A stretch of 64,000 nt of DNA from Pristiophorus japonicus (lineage: Eukaryota), in the NCBI RefSeq assembly GCF_044704955.1, contig NC_091991.1, forward strand, positions 178,684,001 through 178,748,000. Direction: 5' to 3'. Each line of letters starts with the position of its first letter. The first letter of the stretch is position 1. A model generated the notes under the pieces. It did not search any database. It worked only from the letters and a program-made list of their open reading frames with translations, and was not told the DNA's origin. Both the position numbers and the translations under genes were made by a program. This document shows positions 14,572 through 47,900 of the stretch, piece after piece.

Positions 14572-17500
14572 ACATAGAAACATAGAAAACATAGAAACTA
14601 GGTGCAGGAGCAGGCCATTCAGCCCTTCTAGCCTGCACCGCCATTCAATGAGTTCATGGCTGAACATGAAACTTCAGTACCCCTTCCTGCTTTCTCGCCA
14701 TACCCCTTGATCCCCCGAGTAGTAAGGACTTCATCTAACTCCTTTTTGAATATATTTAGTGAATTGGCCTCAACAACTTTCTGTGGTAGAGAATTCCACA
14801 GGTTCACCACTCTCTGGGTGAAGAAGTTTCTCCTCATCTCGGTCCTAAATGGCTTACCCCTTATCCTTAGACTGTGACCCCTGGTTCTGGACTTCCCCAA
14901 CATTGGGAACATTCTTCCTGCATCTAACCTGTCTAAACCCGTCAGAATTTTAAACGTTTCTATGAGGTCCCCTCTCATTCTTCTGAACTCCAGTGAATAC
15001 AAGTCCAGTTGATCCAGTCTTTCTTGATAGGTCAGTCCCACCATCCCGGGAATCAGTCTGGTGAATCTTCGCTGCACTCCCTCAATAGCAAGAATGTCCT
15101 TCCTCAAGTTAGGAGACCAAAACTGTACACAATACTCCAGGTGTGGCCTCACCAAGGCCCTGTACAACTGTAGCAACACCTCCCTGCCCCTGTACTCAAA
15201 TCCCCTCGCTATGAAGGCCAACATGCCATTTGCTTTCTTAACCGCCTGCTGTACCTGCATGCCAACCTTCAATGACTGATGTACCATGACACCCAGGACT
15301 CGTTGCACCTTCCCTTTTCCTAATCTGTCACCATTCAGATAATAGTCTGTCTCTCTGTTTTTACCACCAAAGTGGATAACCTCACATTTATCCACATTAT
15401 ACTTCATCTTTTTTTTTTTGAAATTCGTAGCCAATCGTTCCAATTCTTTGTCAAATCACAAACGCCAGAGGTCACCTTGGGCCCATTCAAGGATCACTCT
15501 GCGCCAATGCTCTTAGCCAAAAGGCCTAGAGCCACTGCACCGTTCCTGGAAGTACTGCAATACCAGGTTCGTGCCATGGAGGTGGATGGGTCAAGCCACC
15601 CCACCCACCTCCTGTTTCCAAAAAAGCAAGCATATACCTTCCTGATCCAGGGAGAACCACCCGGAGGTCATGGTGGCTACTCCCCTGTCAGGTCAGTTAC
15701 GCATGATCTTAGCCAAAATGCACATTATACTTCATCTGCCATGCATTTGCCCACTCACCTAACCTATCCAAGTCACTCTGCAGCCTCATATCATCCTCCT
15801 CGCAGCTCACACTGCCACCCAACTTCGTGTCATCCGCAAATTTGGAGATACTTCATTTAATCCCCTCATCTAAATCATTAATGTACAATGTAAACAGCTG
15901 GAGCCCCAGCACAGAACCTTGCGGTACCCCACCAGTCACTGCCTGCCATTCTGAAAAGTACCCATTTACTCCTACTCTTTGCTTCCTGTCTGACAACCAG
16001 TTCTCACTCCACGTCAGCACACTACCCCCAATCCCATGTGCTTTAACTTTGCACATTAATCTCTTGTGTGGGACCTTGTCGAAAGTCTTCTGAAAGTCCA
16101 AATATACCACATCAACTGGTTCTCCTTTGTCCACTTTACTGGAAACATCCTCAAAAAATTCCAGAAGATTTGTCAAGCATGATTTCCCTTTCACAAATCC
16201 ATGCTGACTTGGACCTATCATGTCACCATTTTCCAAATGCGCTGTTATGACATCCTTTAATAATTGATTCCATCATTTTACCCACTACTGAGGTCAGGCT
16301 GACCGGTCTATAATTCCCTGTTTTCCCTCTCCCTCCTTTTTTAAAAAGTGGGGTTACATTGGCTACCCTCCACTCGATAGGAACTGATCCAAAGTCAATG
16401 GAATGTTGGAAAATGACTGTCAATGCATCCGCTATTTCCAAGGCCACCTCCTTAAGTACTCTGGGATGCAGTCCATCAGGCCCTGGGGATTTATCGGCCT
16501 TCAATCCCATCAATTTCCCCAACACAATTTCCCGACTAATAAAGATTTCCCTCAGTTCCTCCTCCTTACTAGACCCTCTGACCCCTTTTATATCCGGAAG
16601 ATTGTTTGTGTCCTCCTTAGTGAATACTGAACCAAAGTACTTGTTCAATTGGTCTGCCATTTCTTTGTTCCCCGTTATGACTTCCCCTGATTCTGACTGC
16701 AGGGGACCTACGTTTGTCTTTACTAACCTTTTTCTCTTTACATACCTATAGAAACTTTTGCAATCCGCCTTAATGTTCCCTGCAAGCTTCTTCTCGTACT
16801 CCATTTTCCCTGCCCTAATCAAACCCTTTGTCCTCCTCTGCTGAGTTCTAAATTTCTCCCAGTCCCCAGGTTCGCTGCTATTTCTGGCCAATTTGTATGC
16901 CACTTCCTTGGCTTTAATACTATCCCTGATTTCCCTAGATAGCCACGGTTGAGCCACCTTCCCTTTTTTATTTTTACGCCAGACAGGAATGTACAATTGT
17001 TGTAATTCATCCATGCGGTCTCTAAATGTCTGCCATTGCCCATCCACAGTCAACCCCTTAAGTATCATTCGCCAATCTATCCTAGCCAATTCACGCCTCA
17101 TACCTTCAAAGTTACCCTTCTTTAAGTTCTGGACCATGGTCTCTGAATTAACTGTATCATTCTCCATCCTAATGCAGAATTCCACCATATTATGGTCACT
17201 CTTCCCCAAGGGGCCTCGCACAATGAGATTGCTAATTAGTCCTCTCATTACACAACACCCAGTCTAAGATGGCCTCCCCCCTAGTTGGTTCCTCGACATA
17301 TTGGTCCAGAAAACCATCCCTTATGCACTCCAGGAAATCCTCCTCCACCGTATTGCTTCCAGTTTGGCTAGCCCAATCTATGTGCATATTAAAGTCACCC
17401 ATTATAACTGTTGCACCTTTATTACATGCATCCCTAATTTCCTGTTTGATGCCCTCCCCAACATCACTACTACTGTTTGGAGGTCTGTATACAACTCCCA

Positions 17501-18630
17501 CTAACGTTTGGTGCCCTTTGGTGTTCTGCAGCTCTACCCATATAGATTCCACATCATCCAAGCTAATGTCTTTCCTAACTATTGCATTAATCTCCTCTTT
17601 AACCAGCAATGCTACCCCACCTCCTTTTCTTTTTATTCTATCCTTCCTGAATGTTGAATACCCCTGGATGTTGAGTTCCCAGCCCTGATCATCCTGGAGC
17701 CACGTCTCTGTAATCCCAATCACATCATATTTGTTAACATCTATTTGCACAGTTAATTCATCCACCTTATTGCGGATACTCCTTGCATTAAGCCTTCAGG
17801 CTTGTTTTTTTAACACCCTTTGTTGTTTTAGAATTTTGCTGTACAGTGGCCCTTTTTGTTCTTTGCCTTGGGTTTCTCTGCCCTCCACTTTTCCTCATCT
17901 CCTTTCTGTCTTTTGCTTTTGCCTCCTTTTTGTCTCCCTCTGTCTCCCTGCATTGGTTCCCGTCTCCCTGCATTGGTTCCCATCCCCCTGCCATATTAGT
18001 TTAACTCCTCCCCAACAGCACTAGCAAACACTCCCCCTAGGACATTGGTTCTGGTCCTGCCCAGGTGCAGACCGTCCGGTTTGTACTGGTCCCACCTCCC
18101 CCAGAACCGGTTCCAATGCTCCAGGAATTTGAATCCCTCCCTGCTGCACCACTGCTCAAGCCACGTATTCATCTGCGCTATCCTGCGATTCCTACTCTGA
18201 CTAGCACGTGGCACTGGTAGCAATCCCGAGATTACTACTTTTGAGGTCCTACTTTTTAATTTAGCTCCTAGCTCCTTAAATTCGTTTCGTAGGACCTCAT
18301 CCCTTTTTTTTTACCTATGTCTTTGGTACCAATGTGCACCACGACAACTGGCTGTTCTCCCTCCCATTTCAGAATGTCCTGCACCCGCTCCGAGACATCC
18401 TTGACCCTTGCACCAGGGAGGCAACATACCATCCTGGAGTCTCAGTTGTGGCCGCAGAAACGCCTATCTATTCCCCTCACCATTGAATCCCCTATCACTG
18501 TCGCGCTCTCACTCTTTTTCCTGCCCTCCTGTGCAGCAGAGCCAGCCACAGTGCCATGAACTTGGCTGCTGCTGCCCTCCCCTGATGAGTCATCCCCCCC
18601 CCCAACAGTACTCAAAGCAGTGTATCTGTA
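14572..18630 (-). mobile_element. CR1 LINE, 5'-truncated within ORF1 (SGNH esterase VIGDSMVRG), with APE and RT
   Basis: ORFs 17232-17765 (APE), 16223-17248, 15853-16236 and 14628-15443 (RT); (catagaaa)n tail at 14572; interrupted at 15409-15720. Confidence 0.95.
15409..15720 (-). mobile_element. U2/U1 snRNA-derived mosaic retroposon (SINEU-like) with poly(A) tail and 16-17-bp TSD
   Basis: TSD cacattatacttcatc(t) at 15393-15408 and 15721-15736; T11 at 15409-15419; minus strand contains TTTTGGCTAAGATCA (U2 5'), ACTGACCTGACAGGGGAG..ACCATGA..GGTGGTTCTCCC (U1 5'/SL I), ACCTGGTATTGCAGTACTTCCAGGAACGGTGCA (U2 SL IV) and GGCCTTTTGGCTAAGA (U2 SL I). Confidence 0.85.
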
Positions 18631-21668: not shown

Positions 21669-24600
21669 CATCAGGGGAGGGCAGCAGCAGCCAAGTCCAT
21701 GGCACCGTGGGTGGCTCTGCTGCACAAGAGGGCAGGAAAAAGTGGGAGAGCTATAGTGATAGGGGATTCTATTGTAAGGGGAATAGATAGACATTTCTGT
21801 GGCTGCAACCGAGACTCCAGGATGGTATGTTGCCTCCCTGGTGCAAGGGTCAAGGATGTCTCGGAGCGGTTGCAGGACATTTTGGAGCGGGAGGGTGAAC
21901 AGCCAGTTGTCGTGGTGCATATAGGTACCAACGATATAGGTAAAAAAAACGGGATGAGGTCCGACAAGGTGAATTTAGGGAGCTTGGAGTTAAATTAAAA
22001 AGTAGGACCTCAAAGTTAGTAATCTCGGGATTACTACCAGTGCCACGTGCTAGCCAGAGTAGGAATCGCAGGATAGCTCAGATGAATACGTGGCTTGAGG
22101 AGTGGTGCAGAAGGGAGGGATTCAAATTCCTGGGACATTGGAACCAGTTCTGGGGGAGGTGGGACTAGTACAAACCAGACGGTCTGCACCTGGGCAGGAC
22201 CGGAACCAATGTCCTAGGGGGAGTGTTTGGTGGTGCTGTTGAGGGGGGTTAATCTAATATGGCAGGGGGATTGGAACCTATGCAGGGAGACCGAGGGAAG
22301 TCGATTCGGGGCAGAAGCAAAAGATAGAAAGGAGAAAAGTAAAAGTGGAGGGCAGAAAAACCCAAGGCAAAAAGCAAAAAAGGCCTCATTACATCAAAAT
22401 CCTAAAAGGGCAAAGTGTGTTAAAAAGACAAGCCTGAAGGCTCTGTGCCTCAATGCGAGGAGTATTCGTAATAATGTGGACGAATTAACTGCACAGGCAG
22501 CAATTAATGGATATGATATAATTGGCATCACGGAGACATGGCTCCAGGGTGACCAAGGCTGGGAACTCAACATCCAGGGGTATTCAACATTCAGGAAGGA
22601 TAGACAGAAAGGAAAAGGAGGTGGGGTAGCGTTGCTGGTTAAAGAGGAAATTAATGCAATAATAAGGAAGGACATTAGCTTGGATGATGTGGAATTGGTA
22701 TGGGTGGAGCTACGGAATACCACCAAGGGCAGAAAACGCTAGTGGAAGTTGTGTATAGACCACCAAACAATAATAGTGAGGTTGGGGACAGCATCAAACA
22801 AGAAATTAGGGATGCATGCAATAAAGGAACAGCAGTTATCATGGGCGACTTTAATCTACATATAGATTGGGCTAACCAAACTGGTAGCAATACGGTGGAG
22901 TAGGATTTCCTGGAGTGTATTAGGGATGGTTTTCGAGACCAATATGACGAGGAACCAACTAGAGGGCTGGCCATCCTAGACTGGGTGATGAATAATGAGA
23001 AAGGACTAATTAGCAATCTTGTTGTGCGAGGCCCCTTGGGAAAGAGTGACCATAATATGGTAGAATTCTTTATTAAGATGGAGAGTGACACAGTTAATTC
23101 AGAGACTAGGGTCCTGAACTTAAGGAAAGGTAACTTTGATGGCATGAGATGTGAATTGGTTAGAATAGACTGGCAAATGCTACTTAAAGAGTTGACGGTG
23201 GATAGGCAATGGCAAACATTTAAAGATCACATGGATGAACTTCAACAATTGTACATCCCTGTCTGGTGTAAAAATAAAATGGGGAAGGTGGCTCAACCGT
23301 GGCTAACAAGGGAAATTAAGGATAATGTTAACTCCAAGGAAGAGGCATATAAATTGGCCAAAAAAAGCAGCAAACCTGAGGACTGGGAGAAATTTAGAAT
23401 TCAGCAGAGGAGGACAAAGGGTTTAATTAGGAGGGGGGAAATAGAGTATGAGAGGAAGCTTGCCGGCAACATAAAAACTGACTGCAAAAGCTTCTATAGA
23501 TATGTGAAGAGAAAATGATTAGTGAAGACATACGTAGGTTCCTTGCAGTCAGAGTCAGGTGAATTTATAATGGGAAACAAAGAAATGGAAGACCAGTTGA
23601 ACAAATACTTTGATTCTGTCTTCATGAAGGAAGACACAAATAACCTTCCGGAATTACTAGGGGACCGAGGGTCTAGTGAGAAGGAAGAACTGAAGGAAAT
23701 CCTTATTAGGCAGGAAATTGTGTTAGGGAAATTGATGGGATTCAAGGTCGATAAATCCCCGGGCCCTGATAGTCTGCATCCCAGAGTACTTAAGGAAGTG
23801 GCCCTTGAAATAGTGGATGCATTGGTGATCATTTTCAAACTGTCTATCGACTCTGGATCAGTTCCTATGGACTGGAGGGTAGCTAATGTAACACCACTTT
23901 TTAAAAAGGGAGGGAGAGAGAAAACAGGTAATTATAGACCAGCTAGCCATCAGTAGACATCAGTAGTGGGGAAAATGTTGCAATCAATTATTAAGAATGA
24001 AATAGCAGCGCATTTGGAAAGCAGTGACAGAATCGGTGCAAGTCAGCATGGATTTATGAAAGGGAAATCATGCTTGACAAATCTTTTGGAATTTTTTGAG
24101 GATGTAACTAGTAGAGTGGACAAGGGAGAACCAGTGGATGTGGTGTATTTGGACTTTCAAAAGGCTTTTGACAAGGTCCCACACAAGAGATTGGTGTGCA
24201 AAATGGTATTAGGGGTAATGTACTGACATGGATAGAGAAACATTAGAAAATAGGTGCAGGAATAGGCCGTTCGGTCCTTCGAGCCTGCACCGCAATTCAA
24301 TAAGATCATGGCTGATCATTCCCTCAGTACCCCTTTCCTGCTTTCTCTCCATACCCCTTGATCCCTTTAGCCGTAAGGGCCATATCAAACTCCATCTTGA
24401 ATATATCCAATGAACTAGCATCAGCAACTCTCTGCGGTAGGGAATTCCACAGGTTAACTACTCTGAGTGAAGAAGTTTCTCCTCATCTCAGTCCTAAATG
24501 GCTTACCCCTTATCCTTAGACTGTGTCCCCTGGTTCTGGACTTCCCCAACATCGGGAACATTCTTCCTGCATCTAACCTGTCCAGTCCTGTCAGAATTTT

Positions 24601-27600
24601 ATATGTTTCTATGAGATCCCCTCTCATCCTTCTAAACTCCAGTGAATACAGGCCCAGTCGATCCAGTCTCTCCTCATGTGTCAGTCCTGCCATCCCAGGA
24701 ATCAGTCTGGTGAATCTTCGCTGCACTCCCTCAATAGCAAGAACGTCCTTCCTCAGATTAGGAGATCAAAACTGAACACAATATTCCAGGTGAGGCCTCA
24801 CCAAGGCTCTGTACAACTGCAGTAAGACTTCCCTGCACCTCTACTCAAATCCCCTAGCTATGAAGGCCAACATACCATTTGCTGCCTTCACCGCCTGCTG
24901 TACCTACATGCCAACTTTCAATGACTGATGTACCATGACACCCAGATCTCGTTGCACCTCCCCTTTTCCTAATCTGCCGCCATTCAGATAATATTTTGTG
25001 TTTTTGCCACCAAAGTGGATAACCTCACATTTATCCACACTATACTGCATCTGCCACTCGTTTGCCCACTCACCTAACCTGTCCAAGTCACCCTGCAGCT
25101 GTCCTCCTCACAGCTCACACCGCCACGCAGCTTTAGTGTCATCTTCAAACTTGGAGATATTACACTCTATTCCCTCATCCAAATCATTAATGTATATTGT
25201 AAAGAGCTGGGGTCCCAGCACTGAGCCCTGCGGCACTCCACAAGTCACTGCCTGCCATTCTGAAAAGGGCCCGTTTATCCCGACTCTCTGCTTCCTGTCT
25301 GCCAACCAGTTCTCTATCCATGTCAGTACATTACCCCCAATAACATGTGCTTTAATTTTGCACACCAATCTCTTGTATGGGACCCTGTCAAAAGCCTTTT
25401 GAAAGTTCAAATACACCACATCCACTGGTTCTCCCTTGTCCACTCTACTAGTTACATCCTCAAAAAATTCTAAAAGATTTGTCAAGCAGGATTTCACTTT
25501 CATAAATCCATGCTGACTTGGACCGATCCTGTCACTGCTTTCCAAATGTGCTGCTATTTCATCTTTAATAATTGATTCCCACATTTTCCCCACTACTGAT
25601 GTCAGGCTAACCAGTCTATAATTACCCGCTTTCTCTCTCCCTCCATTCTTAAAAATTGGTGTTACATTAGTTACCCTCCAGTCCATAGGAACCGATCCAG
25701 AGTCGATAGACTGTTGGAAAATGATCACCAATGCATCTACTATTTCTAGGGCCAATTTCTTAAGTGCTCTGGGATGCAGACTATCAGGCCCCGGGGATTT
25801 ATCGGCCTTCAATCCCATCAATTTCCCTAACACAATTTCCCTCCTAATAAGGATTTCCTTCAGTTCCTCCTTCTCACTAGATCCTCGGTCCCTTAGTATT
25901 TCCGGAAGGTTATTTGTGTCTTCCTTCGTGAAGACAGAACCAAAGTATTTGTTTAACTGGTCTGCCATTTCTTTGCTCCCCATTATAAATTCACCTGAAT
26001 CTGACTGCAAGGGACCTACGTTTGTCTTCACTAATCTTTTTCTCTTCACATATCTATAGAAGCTTTTGCAGTCAGTTTTTATGTTGCCGGCAAGCTTCCT
26101 CTCATACTCTATTTTCCCCCTCCTAATTAAACCCCTTGTCCTCCTCTGCTGTGTTATAAAATTCTCCCAGTCCTCAGGTTTGCTGCTTTTTCTGGCCAAT
26201 TTATATGCCTCTTCCTTGGATTTAACACTATCCTTAATTTCCCTTCTTAGCCACGGTTGAGCCACCTTCGCCATTTTGTTTTTTTACTGCAGACAGGGAT
26301 GTACAATTGTTGAAGTTCATCCATGTGATCTTTAAATGTTTGCCATTGCCTATCCACCGTCAACCCTTTAAGTATCACTCGCCAGTCTATTCTAGCCAAT
26401 TCACGTCTCATACCATCGAAGTTACCTCTCCTTAAGTTCAGGACCCTAGTCTCTGAATTAACTGTGTCAGTCTCCATCTTAATAAAGAATTCTACCATAT
26501 TATGGTCACTCTTCCCCAAGGGGCCTCACACAACAAGATTGCTAATTAGTCCTTTCTCATTATTCATCACCCAGTCTAGGATGGCCAGCCATCTGGTTGG
26601 CTCCTTGACATATTGGTCTAGAAAACCATCCCTAATAGACTCCAGGAAATTCTCCTCCACTGCATTGCTGCCAGTTTGGTTAGCCCAATCAATATTTAGA
26701 TTAAAGTCACCCATGATAACTGCTGTACCTTTATTGCACGCATCCCTAATTTTTTGTTTGATGCTGTCCCCAACCTCACTACTACTGTTTGGTGGTCTGT
26801 ACAGAACTCCCACTAGCGTTTTATGCCCTTTGGTATTCCGTAGCTCCCTTACAGATTCCACATCATCCAAGCTAATGTCCTTCCTTACTATTGCATTAAT
26901 TTCCTCTTTAACCAGCAACACCACCCCACCTCTTTTTCCTTTCTGTCTATCCTTCCTAAATGTTGAATACCCCTGGATGTTGAGTTCCCAGCCTCGGTCA
27001 CCCTGGAGCCATGTCTCCGTGATGCCAATTACATCATACCCGTTAACTGCTATCTGCGCAGTTAATTCGTCCACCTTATTGCGAATACTCCTCGCATTGA
27101 GGAACAGAGCCTTCAGGCTTGTCTTTTTAACACCTTTTGCCCCTTTAGAATTTTGCTGTAATGTGTCACTTTTTGCTTGTTGCCTTGGGGTTCTCTGCCC
27201 TCCACATTTACTTTTCTTCTTTCTATCTTTTGCTTCTGCCCCCATTCTACTTTCCTCTGTCTCCCTGCATAGGTTCCCATTCCCCAGCAATATTAGTTTA
27301 ACCCCTCCCCAACAGCACTAGCAAACACTCCCTCGGACATTGGTTCCGGTCCTGCCCAGGTGCAAACCGGAACCAGTCCGGTTTGTACTGGTCCCACCTC
27401 CCCCAGAACCGGTTCCAATGTTCCAGGAATTTGAATCCCTCCCTCCTGCACCACTCTTCAAGCCACGTATTCATCTGAGCTATCCTGCGATTCCTACTCT
27501 GACTAGCACGTGGCACTGGTAGCAATCCTGAGATTACTACTTTTGAGGTCCTACTTTTTAATTTAGCTCCTAGCTCCCTAAATTCATCTTGTAGGACCTC

Positions 27601-29126
27601 ATCCCATTTTTTACCTATATTGTTGGTACCTATATGCACCACGACAACTGGCTGTTTACCCTCCCCCTTCAAAATGTTCTGCACCTGCTCCGAGACATCC
27701 TTGACCCTTGTACCAGGGAGGCAACATACCATCCTGGAGTCTCGGTTGCGGCCACAGAAACGTCTATCTATTCCCCTTACAATAGAATCCCCTATCACTA
27801 TAGTGCTCCCACTCTTTTTCCTGCCCTCCTGTGCAGCAGAGCCACCCATGGTGCCATGAACTTGGCTGCTGCTGCTCTCATCTGATGAGTCATCCCCCTC
27901 AACAGTATCCAAAGCGATGTATCTGTTCTGCAGGGGGATGATTGCAGGGGACCCCTGCACTACCTTCCTTCCACTGCTCTTCCTGTTGGTCACCCATCCC
28001 CTATCTGGCTGTGTAACCTTTACCTGCGGTAAGACCAAGTCACTAAACATGCTATTCGCTGGTTGGCAGACAGGAAGTAGAGAGTCGGGATAAACGGGTC
28101 CTTTTCAGAATGGCAGGCAGTGACTAGTTGGGTACCGCAGGGCTCAGTATTGGGACCCCAGCTATTTACAATATACATTAATGATTTAGATGAAGGAATT
28201 GAGTGTAATATCTCCATGTTTGCAGATGACACTAAGCTGGATGGCGGTGTGAGCTTTGAGGAGGACGCTAAGAGGCTGCAGGGTGATTTGGACAGGTTAG
28301 GCGAGTGGACAAATGCATGGCAGATGCAGTATAATGTGGATAAATGTGAGGTTCTCCACTTTGGGGCAAAAACATGAAGACAGAATATTATCTGAATGGA
28401 GTCAGATTAGGAAAAGGGGAGGTTCAATGAGACCTGGGTGTCATGGTACATTAGTCATTGAAAGTTGGCATGCAGGTACAGCAGGTGGTGAAGAAGGCAA
28501 ATGGTATGTTGGCCTTCATAGCTGGTGATTTGAGTATAAGAGCAGGGAGGTCTTACTGCAGTTGTACAAGGCCTTGGTGAGGCTCACCTGGAATATTGTG
28601 TTCAATTTTGGTCTCCTAATCTGAGGAAGGACGTTCTTGCTATTGAGGGAGTGCAGACTGATTCCCGTGATGGCAGGACTGACATATGAGGAGAGACTGG
28701 ATCGACTGGGCCTGTATTCACTGGAGTTCAGAAGGATGAGAGGGGATCTCGTAGAAACATAAATTTCTGACGGGACTGGACAGGTTAGATGCAGGAAGAA
28801 TGTTCCAGATGTTGGGGAAGTTCAGAACCAGAGGACACAGTCTTAGGATAAGGGGTAAGTCATTTAGGACTGAGATGAGGAGAAACTTCTTCACTCAGAG
28901 AGTTGTTAACCTGTGGAATTCCCTGCCGCAGAGAGTTGTTGATGCCAGTTCATTGGATATATTCAAGAGGGAGTTAGATATGGCCCTTACGGCTAAAGGG
29001 ATCAAGGGGTATGGAGAGAAAGCAGGAAAGGGGTACTGAGGGAATGATCAGCCATGATCTTATTGAATGGTGGTGCAGGCTCGAAGGGCCGAATGGCCTA
29101 CTCCTGCACCTATTTTCTATGTTTCT
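21669..29126 (+). mobile_element. CR1 LINE (outer copy): ORF1 esterase, APE, RT; split at 24239/28059 by an antisense CR1
   Basis: Reading TWIEN|WLADRK resumes across the insert; tail ttttctatgtttct at ~29113-29126. Confidence 0.92.
24237..28058 (-). mobile_element. CR1 LINE (inner copy, antisense to its host): ORF1 esterase 27298-28050, APE 26526-27290, RT 24454-26274
   Basis: Long ORFs with CR1 motifs; tail at the left junction. Confidence 0.93.
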
Positions 29127-30475
29127 CGAGGTCGTGGGTTTGGGAGGTGCTGTCGAGTGGTCTTGCTAATAGCCTGTGTAACTCCTGGTGTGCAAATGGA
29201 AATTCCATGAGCCCAATGCCTCCTCGGCCAATGTTTTCACTTCAATCTAAAGTTGGATCTCCGAGACGTTATCGGCTTGCGTTGGGCTACTTACATTTCC
29301 TGACAATAAGCGCTGAACGAAATACAGTGAATGGCACTGGAGTTAAAGCAAGCCGGAAGGGTACAGTACAGGGATTCCTGCTCCAAAACACACTCAAACT
29401 AAAAATCAGAAATCACTAATAATTACAGAGCTAGAATTTTCAAAATGCTTTGTGCTTGTTACCTTGTTAACTATTCTGCTTGTCCAGTTTGCTTCACTTG
29501 TGCTCTAGAGAACTGTAGCTCTTTACCCTTTTTGAACAGCATTGTAACATTTGCCGCCCTCTCCAGCCTTTTGTTACAATTCCTGTTTCCAAAGAATTTT
29601 TGGAAAATTATAGTCAGTATTTCTGCTAGCTTTATTAGTTGGAAGCTTTTCTACCAGAAGCAAAAGCAATTGCATATTGGGATTGAGAGTTGAGTGGACG
29701 CTTACTGCCTTTTATACCGTACCTCCAGCCTAGAAGTGAATCTGCAGTATCGCCTATGAAAAGGGACACTTTTCAATGGTTGTAGTTATTTTTTCCTATG
29801 ATAAATCTTAAAGTATAATCTCTAGTTTCCATATATATTTTCTTATGAATTGATCAATGGGAAAGCTATGTTTAGTGATGGAATTTTGGAAATTTTTTCC
29901 CAGTAAATGAGAATGATAAAACCTCGACCTACCAACAGTGCAAATTAAAAAGTGCAAACAACATCTGAAAACTATGTACAACAAGTCAAATACCGTTATT
30001 TCAGTCCAGTTTCTAAGCCATATATCCACACTCAATGCATCGTTAGCTTTTCTCACTATTCTGAAACGTTGACCTTTTGAGACTCGTGACTTATCAACTT
30101 TAAGTCAATTAAGCCCTTTGCCAGTGATGGAGAGAGAGAAGTCCAGGAAGGGAAGAGAAGAGCCAGAAATGGACCATGTAAAAGTGAGGAATCAGAAACA
30201 TTGTAAATGAGATTCTCAAGATCAGGGAGAGAGCGGGAAGCAACACCAACAAAGTCCGAGGAAGAGGTCAGGAAGGGAGTCTGAGTCGGAGTGGAACAAA
30301 GAATGTTCCACAGATCCTACAACAAGACAAGCATAGGCGGGACCCATGAATATCACCTTTTATCTGGAGGAAATGACTGAAGTCACTTACGAAAGCTGAT
30401 TTCACTCATTGCGCCTGGCATTGGTATAACCTGCTACACCTGGACGCCACCATCACTTGATGCATCTCACCACTG

Positions 30476-38800: not shown

Positions 38801-39460
38801 AGACCAAAACTGTACACAATACTCCAGGTGTGGCCTCACCAAAGCCCTGTACAGCTGTAGTAACACCTCCCTGCCCCTGTACTCAAATCCCCTCGTTATG
38901 AAGGCCAACATGCCATTTGCTTTCTTAACCGCCTGCTGTACCTGCATGCTAACCTTCAATGACTGATGTACCATGACACCCAGGTCTCATTGCACCTCCC
39001 CTTTTCCTAATCTGTCACCATTCAGATAATAGTCTGTCTCTCTGTTTTTACCACCAAAGTGGATAACCTCACATTTATCCACATTATACTTCATCTGCCA
39101 TGCATTGCCAACTCACCTAACCTATCCAACTCACTCTGCAGCCTCATAGCATCCTCCTCCAGCTCACACTGCCACCCAACTTAATGTCATCTGCAAATTT
39201 GGAGATACTACATTTAATCCCCTCGTCTAAATCATTAATGTACAATGTAAACAGCTGGGGCCCCAGCACAGAACCTTGCGGTACCCCACTAGTCACTGCC
39301 TGCCATTCTGAAAAGTACCCATTTACTCCTACTCTTTGCTTCCTGTCTGACAACCAGTTCTCAATCCACGTCAGCACACTACCCACAATCCCATTTAAAA
39401 CTATCCTTAACTTCTCTAGTTAGCCATGGTTGTACCACTTTTCCTCAAGGGAATGTATAT
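35813..39460 (-). mobile_element. Older CR1 LINE carrying nested insertions (~36997-37550 unknown element; 38284-39393 younger CR1)
   Basis: RT ORF remnants 36082-36781; host sequence resumes after each insert. Confidence 0.8.
38284..39393 (-). mobile_element. Younger CR1 3' fragment (same subfamily as 14572-18630); shows the empty site of the snRNA-mosaic insertion
   Basis: Near-identical to 14580-16030 but with a single cacattatacttcatctgcc at ~39080. Confidence 0.9.
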
Positions 39461-41120: not shown

Positions 41121-41959
41121 ATGTTGATGATGTTATTGGTGTGCCCGCTGTAATAAGTGTTGGACCAGAAAGTGGAAAGTAATTCAGGTTCCCACTTCCT
41201 GATGTAAAGTGTGTGCAGGAGACATCAGGGGAGGACATGCTTGGGCATGGTTGTGATACCTCTAGAGGGGAATAGGCAGCCAACAGCTCACTGTCCAGAT
41301 CCACATATTAGAATAGCTACCGGAGGGCAGCCAGCACTTGTGGAACTGTACCGCAGTATGGCATCGGCACCATTTGGGCTGGGGGGAGGAGAGAAAATTG
41401 AATAAACACAAAAAGAAAATTGACTCCACAATCTCCAGAGCAACGAGAATGAGGCATGGTGGCAGCGAGAGAACATGGGTCACAAGGGATGAAGAAGATA
41501 ATAATATCAAGCATAGGAAGTGAAAAAGAGGAAACAAGTGAGGAACAGAACACTCTGGACTTTCAAGACTGAATTTGGTGTCAGTCTGTCATGAGACCAA
41601 GTCAATGTCACAGATAATGAACAAATTACCACAAGAAGCATAAAAACGATGAGAAATAAAAACACAGCTGGATCTGGCCAGTGTTTCAATGCAGTGAGAA
41701 GTGAATACACTGGTAGTCAGACTGAGTGAGGCATTGGCTTTATCTTGAAGCACCAAATATGGGAATCAGTGAGTGGGGAATATCTGGCGTGACAGTTTGA
41801 GGGATGAGTTTTGATGGGTCAAACATATTCATTCACCTGTGACTTTTATGTAGTGACAATTCAACAACTCTTTATTTGGACAGATTAAAGCCAAAGGGGG
41901 CATTTACTGGTATGTGAGAGAGGGTATTAGTTTGTGTTTGAAGGACATTGGTTTACTTG

Positions 41960-42455
41960 TCTCTAACCTGCACTGTACCTGCCCTGGGAGTGTTTGATGG
42001 GACAGTGTAGAGGGAGCTTTACTCTGTATCTAACCCCTTGTACCTGCCCTGGGAGTGTTTGATGAGACAATGTAGAGGGAGCTTTACGCTGTATCTAACC
42101 CCATGCTGTACCTTCCCTGGGAGTTTGATGGCAGCGTAGAGGAAGCTTTATACTGTATCTAACCCTCTGTACCTGCCCTGGGACTGTTTGATGGGACAGT
42201 GCAGAGGGAGCTTTACTCTATCTAACCCGTGCTGTACCTGATTGGGACTGTTTGATGGGACAGTGCAGAGGGAGCTTTACTCTATCTAACCCGTGCTGTA
42301 CCTGATTGGGAGTGTTTGATGGGACAGTGCAGAGGGAGCTTTACTCTATCTAACCCGTGCTGTACCTGATTGGGAGTGTTTGATGGGACAGTGCAGAGGG
42401 AGCTTTACTCGATCTAACCCGTGCTGTACCTGATTGGGAGTGTTTGATGGGACAG
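41960..42455. repeat. ~59-bp tandem repeat (tgtacctgccctgggagtgtttgatgggacagtgtagagggagctttactctgtatctaaccc..) x ~8
   Basis: Directly visible units with two sub-variants. Confidence 0.92.
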
Positions 42456-46749: not shown

Positions 46750-47900
46750 TAATAGGAGCAGGAGTAGGCCATTCAGCCCTTCGAGCCTACTCCGCTATTC
46801 AATATCATGGCTGATATTCTCCCTCAACAATATCCCTTAGTATCTAAAAATCTATCAATCCATGTCTTGAATACACTCAATGAGTGAGCATCCACAGGAC
46901 TCTGGGGTAGAGAATTCCAATTGTTCACAAACCTTAGAGTAAAAAAAATTCTCATTTCAGGCCTTATTCTGATGTGATCCCTAGTTCTAGACTCCCCAGC
47001 CAGAGTCTACCCTGTTAAGAGGCTTAAGAATTTTATACATTTCAATGAATTACATCTCATTCTGCTAAACTCAATGGAGTATAGGCCTAGTCTACTCATA
47101 GTCTCTCCTCACAGGACAATCCCCTCATCCCAGGAATCAGTCTAGTGAACCTTTGTTGCACTCCCTCTAAGACAAGCATATTCTTCCTTCGATAAGGAGA
47201 CCAAAACTACCAAAGCCCTGTATAACTGCAGCGACTTCTTTATTCCAATCCTTTTGTAATAAAGACCAACATACCATTTGCTTTCCTAATTGCTTGCTGA
47301 ACCTGCATGTTAACTTTGTGATTCATGTACAAGGACACCCAGCTCTCTCTGAACACCAACATTTCCCAATCTCTCACCATTTAAAAAATACTCTGCTTTT
47401 CTATTTTTTCTACCAAAAGTGGATAACTTCACATTTCAATCCATCTGCCATGTTCTTGCCCACTCACATAACCTATCTATATCCTTTTGCAGACTTTTGT
47501 GCCCTCCTAACAATTTACTTTCCCACCTAGCTTTGTATCATCAGCAAACTTGGATACATTACACTCAGACCCCTCGTCAAAGTAATTGATATAGATTGTA
47601 AATAGCTGAGGCCCAAGCACTGATCCTTGCGGTACCCCACTAGTTACAGCCCACCAATCTAAAAATGACCTGTTTATTCCAACTGTTTTCTGTCTGCTAA
47701 CCAATCCTCAATCCATGGTAATATATTACCCCCAATTCAATGAGGCCTAATTTAGTGTAATAACCTCTTGTGGCATCTTATCAAATGCTTTTTGAAAATC
47801 CAAATGGACGACATCCACTGGTTCCTGCTAGTTACTTCAATCAATTCACGCTGGCACTGCCCAACCATATTATGGTTTTCTAAGTGCCCTGTCACCACGT
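46750..47900 (-). mobile_element. Degraded CR1 RT fragment in the PGP intron
   Basis: [13 protein letters not shown]...FADDTKLGG (47507-47704). Confidence 0.85.

Follow-up and report, generated by a model that had tools for sequence, protein, structure and literature searches.

A young snRNA-headed SINE family of Pristiophorus japonicus and its probable Keno-like partner LINE in the U2 genes

The Insert and Its Host Element

The window analyzed here is a stretch of 64,000 nucleotides from Pristiophorus japonicus (contig NC_091991.1, positions 178,684,001 to 178,748,000). On its minus strand it contains a LINE with broken reading frames (14581..18629), recognized from Pfam matches and from alignment with its sister copies. 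Of four segments scanned against Pfam, one contains an endonuclease domain (Exo_endo_phos, in 17232-17795) and another a reverse transcriptase (RT) domain (RVT_1, in 15853-16272); the other two gave no match. The element is presumably related to CR1. As an earlier note on this DNA had recognized, the LINE is interrupted by an insertion, and the break lies in the C-terminal part of the RT region.

The insert, also read on the minus strand, is flanked by a 17-bp target-site duplication, with the 5′ copy at 15721..15737 and an identical 3′ copy at 15393..15409. It ends in an 11-nt poly(A) at 15409..15419, the final A of which is common to the poly(A) and the duplication. Both the perfect duplication of 16-17 bp and the A11 end described in the earlier note are thus upheld. 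Two junction bases at 15719..15720 are either untemplated or consist of U2 nt 13 and one mismatched base. When the insert and one copy of the duplication were taken out, the resulting 522-nt joined site aligned without gaps to four sister LINE copies in the window: 38838-39357 (96% identity), 28059-28578 (86%), 24800-25309 (85%) and 47209-47703 (70%). The first of these is the empty site that had been noticed near 39080, to which three further copies can now be added.

Elsewhere in the window, nested and inverted copies of the host LINE family occupy 21669-27887 and 28059-29127, including a 2.6-kb inverted pair with 91% identity, and self-comparison revealed tandem repeats at 41952-42455 and 2527-2763.

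Mosaic Structure of the SINE

A consensus made from the 30 best copies in the genome is 313 nt long, followed by poly(A), and was mapped against the U1 and U2 genes of the same genome. The alignments bear out the U2-U1-U2-U2 order that had been proposed from the insert by itself, with a tail behind it. The head is U2 nt 1-35 (33/35 identical) in full-length copies, of which the window copy retains nt 15-35 (15698..15718, minus strand, as are all the pieces that follow). Its match to the consensus begins at nt 15 (294/299), so that the copy is about 13 nt short and the suspicion of a 5′ truncation was correct. The head is followed by U1 nt 3-52 (15646..15697; 41/52 identical, E = 1e-8 with a 355-letter subject), which comprises the 5′ end and stem-loop I of U1 with the hairpin retained and the loop altered. 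A short repeat of U1 28-39 and a spacer lie at 15625..15647; the 11/12 identity of this repeat (E = 0.55) is not significant alone, and sister subfamilies lengthen it to U1 28-47 at 95% identity. Then comes U2 nt 100-186 (15535..15624; 70/90 identical), with the T-run of the Sm region, stem-loop III as a 13-bp hairpin and stem-loop IV, assigned by Rfam, alignment and folding. The Sm-site-like segment pointed out earlier is there in part: the T-run is present, but the A that precedes it in U2 is absent. A second piece of U2 stem-loop I, nt 7-29 (15508..15530; 21/23 identical), extends to nt 38 in an older family, referred to here as family C. The remaining 88 nt (15420..15507) form a 3′ tail that is akin to the shorter tail of family C and unrelated to the 3′ UTR of the U2-resident LINE described below.

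Rfam, proposed as a check on both snRNAs, recovered U2 at 39.1 bits, below the gathering score of 46, and returned no U1 match at E ≤ 1; in the whole window, nothing reached a gathering score. The hairpins of U1 stem-loop I and U2 stem-loop III still fold despite sequence changes, and the rebuilt stem-loop III is calculated to be more stable than that of U2 itself (-27.9 versus -14.8 kcal/mol). This retention of predicted hairpins may reflect selection.

One third of the way into the SINE is a run of six Ts, and a run of T should stop Pol III. A classical Pol III SINE with a tRNA, 5S or 7SL head was rejected on the basis of this T6 and of Rfam, which at E ≤ 1 gives U2 only. Three inverted CCAAT-like words are present in the tail. 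A U6 piece in the tail was also considered and is unproven: a 12-nt exact match to U6 was reached in 0 of 1,000 shuffles of the window tail, as one among 12 comparisons, and in 35 of 1,000 for the tail of subfamily B (see below), but both halves of the word occur in family C tails. Since recombination of those halves yields the same word, a U6 origin was rejected.

A Young and Abundant Family

A search of the 5.9-Gb genome with the window copy gave 1,618 candidates. The best 40 scored among these lie on many contigs and are 97-100% identical to the window copy; being the top copies, they are uninformative about the mean age of the family. Pattern counts, all of them minimum values and with no matches to the reversed control patterns, gave at least 2,243 exact 27-mer head junctions of subfamily A, the type found in the window, at least 388 heads of subfamily B by exact motif, and at least 4,877 exact 27-mer matches to family tails. 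Family C, the older relative, has at least 587 copies and consists of nearly the whole of U2 minus about 11 nt, then U2 7-38 and a tail that is short. Subfamilies A and B, whose heads diverge from U2 after nt 28-35, probably descend from it. The assortment of heads, a 34-nt middle duplication and at least four tail variants points to free recombination among copies. The candidates and exact head junctions confirm that the insert belongs to a replicating element rather than being a one-off snRNA pseudogene; instead of a single copy, the genome holds thousands with common junctions.

The earlier note had also raised the question of whether the insert might be the 3′ UTR of a LINE, and the answer was negative. 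Full-length copies start at U2 nt 1, within target duplications, and a start at U2 nt 1-5 was found in 16 of the first 30 copies with an A head. No longer copies running into ORF2 were found: the 5′ ends stop at U2 nt 1, and the match to the LINE described below is confined to the U2 head. At the 3′ end, the SINE and that LINE have only poly(A) in common. Among the 30 best copies, common 5′ flanks are made up solely of tandem neighbors or host repeats. An exact finder detected duplications of 7-20 bp (median 15) at 27 of 58 SINE loci, and in 20 of the loci with duplications a pyrimidine precedes the cut. Head-to-tail trains with other family members occur at 10 of the first 30 A-head loci.

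Truncated copies (L003, L022, L133, L156, L165 and others) very often begin near consensus nt 120, at the foot of stem-loop III, which is either the result of RT stalling or the mark of a separate short subfamily. On contig C15 (89.31-89.34 Mb, L203-L209), seven SINE copies were amplified passively within a satellite.

That this is a real, young, replicating family of snRNA-headed SINEs is practically certain. The opposite reading, in which the copies are snRNA chimeras that arose one by one, or else a SINE transcribed by Pol III from within, is extremely improbable, given the same junctions in thousands of copies and the internal six-T run, respectively.

The Target Site at U2 nt 38

One of the 30 best SINE copies is inserted at nt 38 of a sequence that resembles U2. 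When poly(A) followed by U2 from nt 38 was looked for, 155 matches were obtained, with none at nt 28-37 among the first 100 listed. A wider search (nt 38-50) gave 121 matches; among the first 100 listed, 72 of 75 distinct sites were at nt 38/39, by a tally made by hand and with a reversed-pattern control of 0. Many of the 75 junctions are array or segmental repeats and therefore represent fewer insertion events. Downstream of the junction comes the target sequence that PMC6136364 gives for Keno.

Outside the U2 array on contig C19 and the stretches analyzed on contig C9, 33 junctions were read, with an A or B SINE upstream in 27, family C in 1 and a LINE in 5. The dispersed SINE targets at nt 38 are copies of family C, which is their main dispersed target; these family C loci lie downstream of the junction in L059-L081 and L265-L282. 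An A-headed copy (L093) and a C copy (L092) were found at nt 38 of real U2 genes of a second type; the gene that holds the A-headed copy has lost its upstream flank.

By chance, far fewer than one insertion at nt 38 would be expected (about 5,000 insertions, about 900 targets and 1.2e10 sites). Only about 1% of SINE copies are found at U2 sites, with about 99% elsewhere, so that the specificity is strong but leaky. Another hot spot is a single base of a Gypsy pol gene, where 4 of 80 distinct 3′ flanks lie. Recurrent insertions at the same base (L002/L011/L023/L151, L007/L177, L016/L026 and L137/L184) were observed in the Gypsy pol region and in LINE RT or 3′ regions.

A Probable Partner LINE in the U2 Arrays

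Full-length LINEs that end at U2 nt 38 are present in the C19 U2 array and on contig C1003, where the LINE is flanked by a 16-bp duplication of U2 38-53. The reading frames are open, with an ORF1 of 581 codons (ZCCHC3-type RBDs and zf-CCHC) and an ORF2 of 1,147 codons (APE, RT and zf-RVT), and several intact copies reside in the U2 array. The LINE has a head of its own that resembles U2 1-44, and LINE insertions are found in such heads, again at nt 38. In having an APE, an RT and two ORFs, and in inserting 37 nt into U2 genes, it agrees with Keno. Short stretches of ORF2 are 71-81% identical to Heterodontus proteins, compared with 43-48% for amphibian proteins, and the LINE is 39% identical to BAD04856 of Takifugu, presumably a Keno protein.

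The 3′ UTR of this LINE gave 1,847 candidates, widely dispersed in the genome. Among the best 30 of these 3′ ends, 13 run on into U2 38-191 and 3 into a further LINE head, again at its nt 38; 7 dispersed ends abut a SINE copy head-to-tail, and 1 lies within a B head at about nt 38. SINE and LINE thus share the nt-38 site in U2 and adjoin each other elsewhere, in line with the Tx1-type mobilization suggested in the earlier note. Judged from these sequence relationships, the SINE is very probably mobilized by this Tx1/Keno LINE.

Where the C19 array ends in the assembly (69.62-69.72 Mb; L096, L097, L105, L107, L108), LINE and SINE insertions are crowded together, with 16 junctions between poly(A) and U2 within 100 kb, beside a long GA-rich stretch; array contigs, by contrast, consist mostly of intact units. 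In L096, the LINE 5′ UTR has an octamer-like word and CCAAT-like words just past the U2 head, possibly an internal promoter element.

SINE Copies Fused to the U2 Start Site

In three successive units of the C19 array, the U2 upstream flank is followed by a subfamily B SINE from its nt 1, poly(A), U2 38-191 and the 3′ flank. Genome-wide, the end of the U2 flank is joined to a SINE head in 18 places. Seventeen of these are array units on four contigs, all of subfamily B, in which the SINE takes the place of the 5′ end of U2, precisely from +1; the 18th is a dispersed copy with a chance match of 5 nt. The tails of the 17 units are 20-110 nt long, and U2 38-191 is retained at 100%. There are two sequence variants, and recombination within the arrays may have multiplied the products of as few as two or three insertions. 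Upstream of a U2 head the same flank, referred to as type 1, occurs 261 times, and upstream of a LINE head 12 times. By these pattern counts, which stand in for a base-by-base census, about 6% of the assembled type-1 units are occupied by a SINE (17/290) and 4% have a LINE fused at +1 (12/290).

An array-specific variant of B occurs 18 times, 16 of them in arrays and 2 dispersed. The two dispersed copies are identical to an array unit over 339/339 and 341/341 positions, and one has a clear 11-bp duplication. This identity gives no direction of transfer, and array and dispersed copies could both derive from another common source.

Searches behind both U2 flanks brought up no copy of type A, whether fused (0 of 19 matches) or after a duplication (0 of 28), although A heads outnumber B heads in the genome. 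In 28 copies of type A, additional U2 sequence at the 5′ end stops at nt 43-56, a range bounded by the search pattern itself, mostly inside the duplication. Such extensions fit read-through from U2 genes and template switching equally.

The second type of U2 gene, 96% identical to the main type and with different flanks, is located on C9 (111.0-111.3 and 113.4-113.8 Mb; L089-L094) in segmental repeats of 18-21 kb, where LINE, C, A and B insertions all occur at nt 38. One B-like copy on C9 is likewise fused in a gene of this type, behind a flank with a PSE-like element placed as in U1. A search for daughters with its private base gave one match and no daughters. Near -61, a stretch resembling the PSE consensus is present both in the flanks of U1 and in those of type-2 U2 genes. 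In the type-1 array flank, no PSE- or octamer-like match was found by eye or with a motif of this kind, and a promoter is assumed there because 261 near-identical units carry the flank.

With regard to the other snRNA genes of this genome, a tandem U6 array with a 2.55-kb unit is found on contig C8 (186.57-186.83 Mb, L232-L234), and U1 genes form inverted pairs on several contigs.

A Proposed Cycle of Mobilization

The fused units have the anatomy expected of source genes that would borrow the U2 promoter, as far as can be read from sequence. The model favored here, with reasonable though not strong confidence, is that of a SINEU mobilized by Keno whose source copies borrow this promoter. The cycle would begin with insertion at U2 nt 37/38, as seen for both LINE and SINE. 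Because the SINE itself starts with U2 nt 1-28/35, its insertion can become joined head to head with the 5′ end of the gene, and the product would be the arrangement found in the arrays: SINE nt 1 at U2 +1, then poly(A), U2 38-191 and the gene 3′ flank. The snRNA-type Pol II promoter would then yield an RNA beginning with the first nucleotide of the SINE, on which the LINE ORF2 would prime at the templated poly(A) and copy the SINE elsewhere with relaxed specificity. The roughly 1% of copies that hit nt 38 again would include the few that turn into new sources, and sources would turn over with the tandem array. From such turnover, it would follow that B is the subfamily currently housed and that A sources have since been lost, are unassembled or are absent from this individual. 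The mosaic would be a record of earlier rounds of the cycle and of template switches to U1 and U2 RNA. The second U2 piece of those C copies that have diverged least stops precisely at nt 38, and some B-like heads cover U2 1-38; both read as fossils of the same cycle. Against the model stand the missing A-type source, the type-1 flank in which no PSE is recognizable, the mere two dispersed copies with the newest array variant, the lack of daughters of the type-2 fused copy, and the location of about 99% of copies away from U2 sites. Whether SINE and LINE form a self-sustaining community in the U2 genes, with the SINE swapping in for the gene 5′ end and taking the snRNA promoter at +1, is evenly balanced.

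Another model, which is rather unlikely, would make the array copies passive victims of U2 targeting. The true sources would be dispersed copies that are transcribed by read-through from Pol II promoters of the host, and the +1 start would be renewed each time the reverse transcriptase switches template to U2 snRNA, as in the model of Kojima (2015), according to the available text (PMC4494074). The arrays lack any A source, the 28 A copies have U2 extensions that end at many different positions, the head, middle and tail modules have been freely recombined among copies, and the type-1 flank has no clear PSE, all as this model would have it. However, the diverged A and B heads mostly start at nt 1 without an extra piece of U2, the 30 best copies have no common upstream extension, and there are dispersed copies identical to array units.

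Improbable, too, is the proposal that most dispersed copies, including that in the window, were moved by a Tx1/L1 family other than the U2-resident LINE. Beyond poly(A), the SINE and LINE 3′ sequences are unlike, and the SINE hot spots (Gypsy pol, 4/80 flanks, and other repeats) are absent among 30 LINE 3′ flanks, but the U2-resident LINE is itself widely dispersed and repeatedly shares sites with the SINE. A tandem promoter, by which the tail of an upstream copy would drive the copy behind it, by analogy with what is reportedly the case for Drosophila HeT-A, is a very improbable explanation. The head-to-tail trains at 10 of the first 30 A-head loci are expected anyway when a restored target is re-cut, and the three inverted CCAAT-like words in the tail, which would fit such a promoter, are five-letter words that arise through the end duplications found in tails.

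Comparison with Known Systems

SINEU-1, -2 and -3 are snRNA-headed SINEs of crocodilians described by Kojima (2015; PMC4494074). According to the available text of that paper, SINEU-2 consists of U1 followed by 3′ U2, while SINEU-3 combines the 5′ 32 bp of U2 with its middle 83 bp. Since U1 and U2 have no internal promoter, SINEU transcription was left as an open question, with flanking promoters suggested and R2 cited. The same text reports no SINEU outside crocodilians, and the accessible parts of PMC4758252 and PMC5381603 cite SINEU for crocodilians only. The family described here likewise has a U1/U2 head and poly(A), is non-coding and shorter than 500 bp, and forms a family with common junctions and a Tx1 partner inferred from shared targets. 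As far as the excerpts go, recurrent 5′ additions, tandem insertions around the duplication, internal oligo-T and a Tx1 partner that itself has an snRNA head are also in common with the crocodilian elements. The latter target Mariner-N4 and, except for SINEU-2, are inactive. In P. japonicus, by contrast, no preference for Mariner-N4 was seen: the preferred site is U2 nt 38, the hot spots read lie in Gypsy and LINE coding sequence, and there are copies fused at +1 and an intact LINE in the same array.

Keno is a U2-targeting Tx1 LINE (PMC6136364, PMC4640811), and like it, the partner is an APE-RT LINE that inserts 37 nt into U2, before the same 3′ target sequence. Unlike Keno as presented in the available excerpts, it has a U2 head of its own and is widely dispersed. 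A SINE partner of Keno is not mentioned in the accessible portions of these two papers. Utopia shares the U2 site with Keno, and the U2 5′ fragment is lost at some Utopia insertions, but Utopia is autonomous and has a restriction-like endonuclease (PMC4640811, as excerpted).

The nearest working analogy is provided by the R2 SIDEs of Drosophila. The R2 and R2/R1 SIDEs are non-autonomous, as the SINE would be here, and reside at one set position within tandemly repeated RNA genes, on whose transcription they depend. According to the available text of PMC3414825, SIDEs are internal LINE deletions whose 5′ end is freed from the 28S cotranscript by a ribozyme. Unlike the SIDEs, the SINE is built from the target RNA itself, and it would need no 5′ processing because its nt 1 is the start site of the host gene.

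Implications

The literature covered, in which subscription journals and Repbase Reports are thinly represented, mentions neither a SINEU from sharks or their cartilaginous relatives nor a SINE that resides in U2 genes; the family may nevertheless have an entry in Repbase or Dfam. The present family extends SINEU to a second vertebrate lineage, where it probably had an independent origin. The system is very young, with an intact partner LINE, and the occupancy of type-1 U2 units by SINE and LINE bears on the turnover of U2 arrays. Because this LINE goes to one defined position in a Pol II gene of many copies and takes a cargo of 340 nt there, the pair is a natural model for site-directed, RNA-templated insertion. 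The loci named here offer a candidate answer to how promoterless SINEUs get transcribed. If a self-sustaining SINE-LINE community does live in the U2 genes, it would explain how all SINEUs arose and why their heads are renewed again and again, and the SINE RNAs would be capped and handled like snRNA, with the U1 and U2 hairpins kept for the binding of snRNP proteins. It would then represent a third way of being a SINE, in which an external snRNA-type Pol II promoter is regained by targeting.
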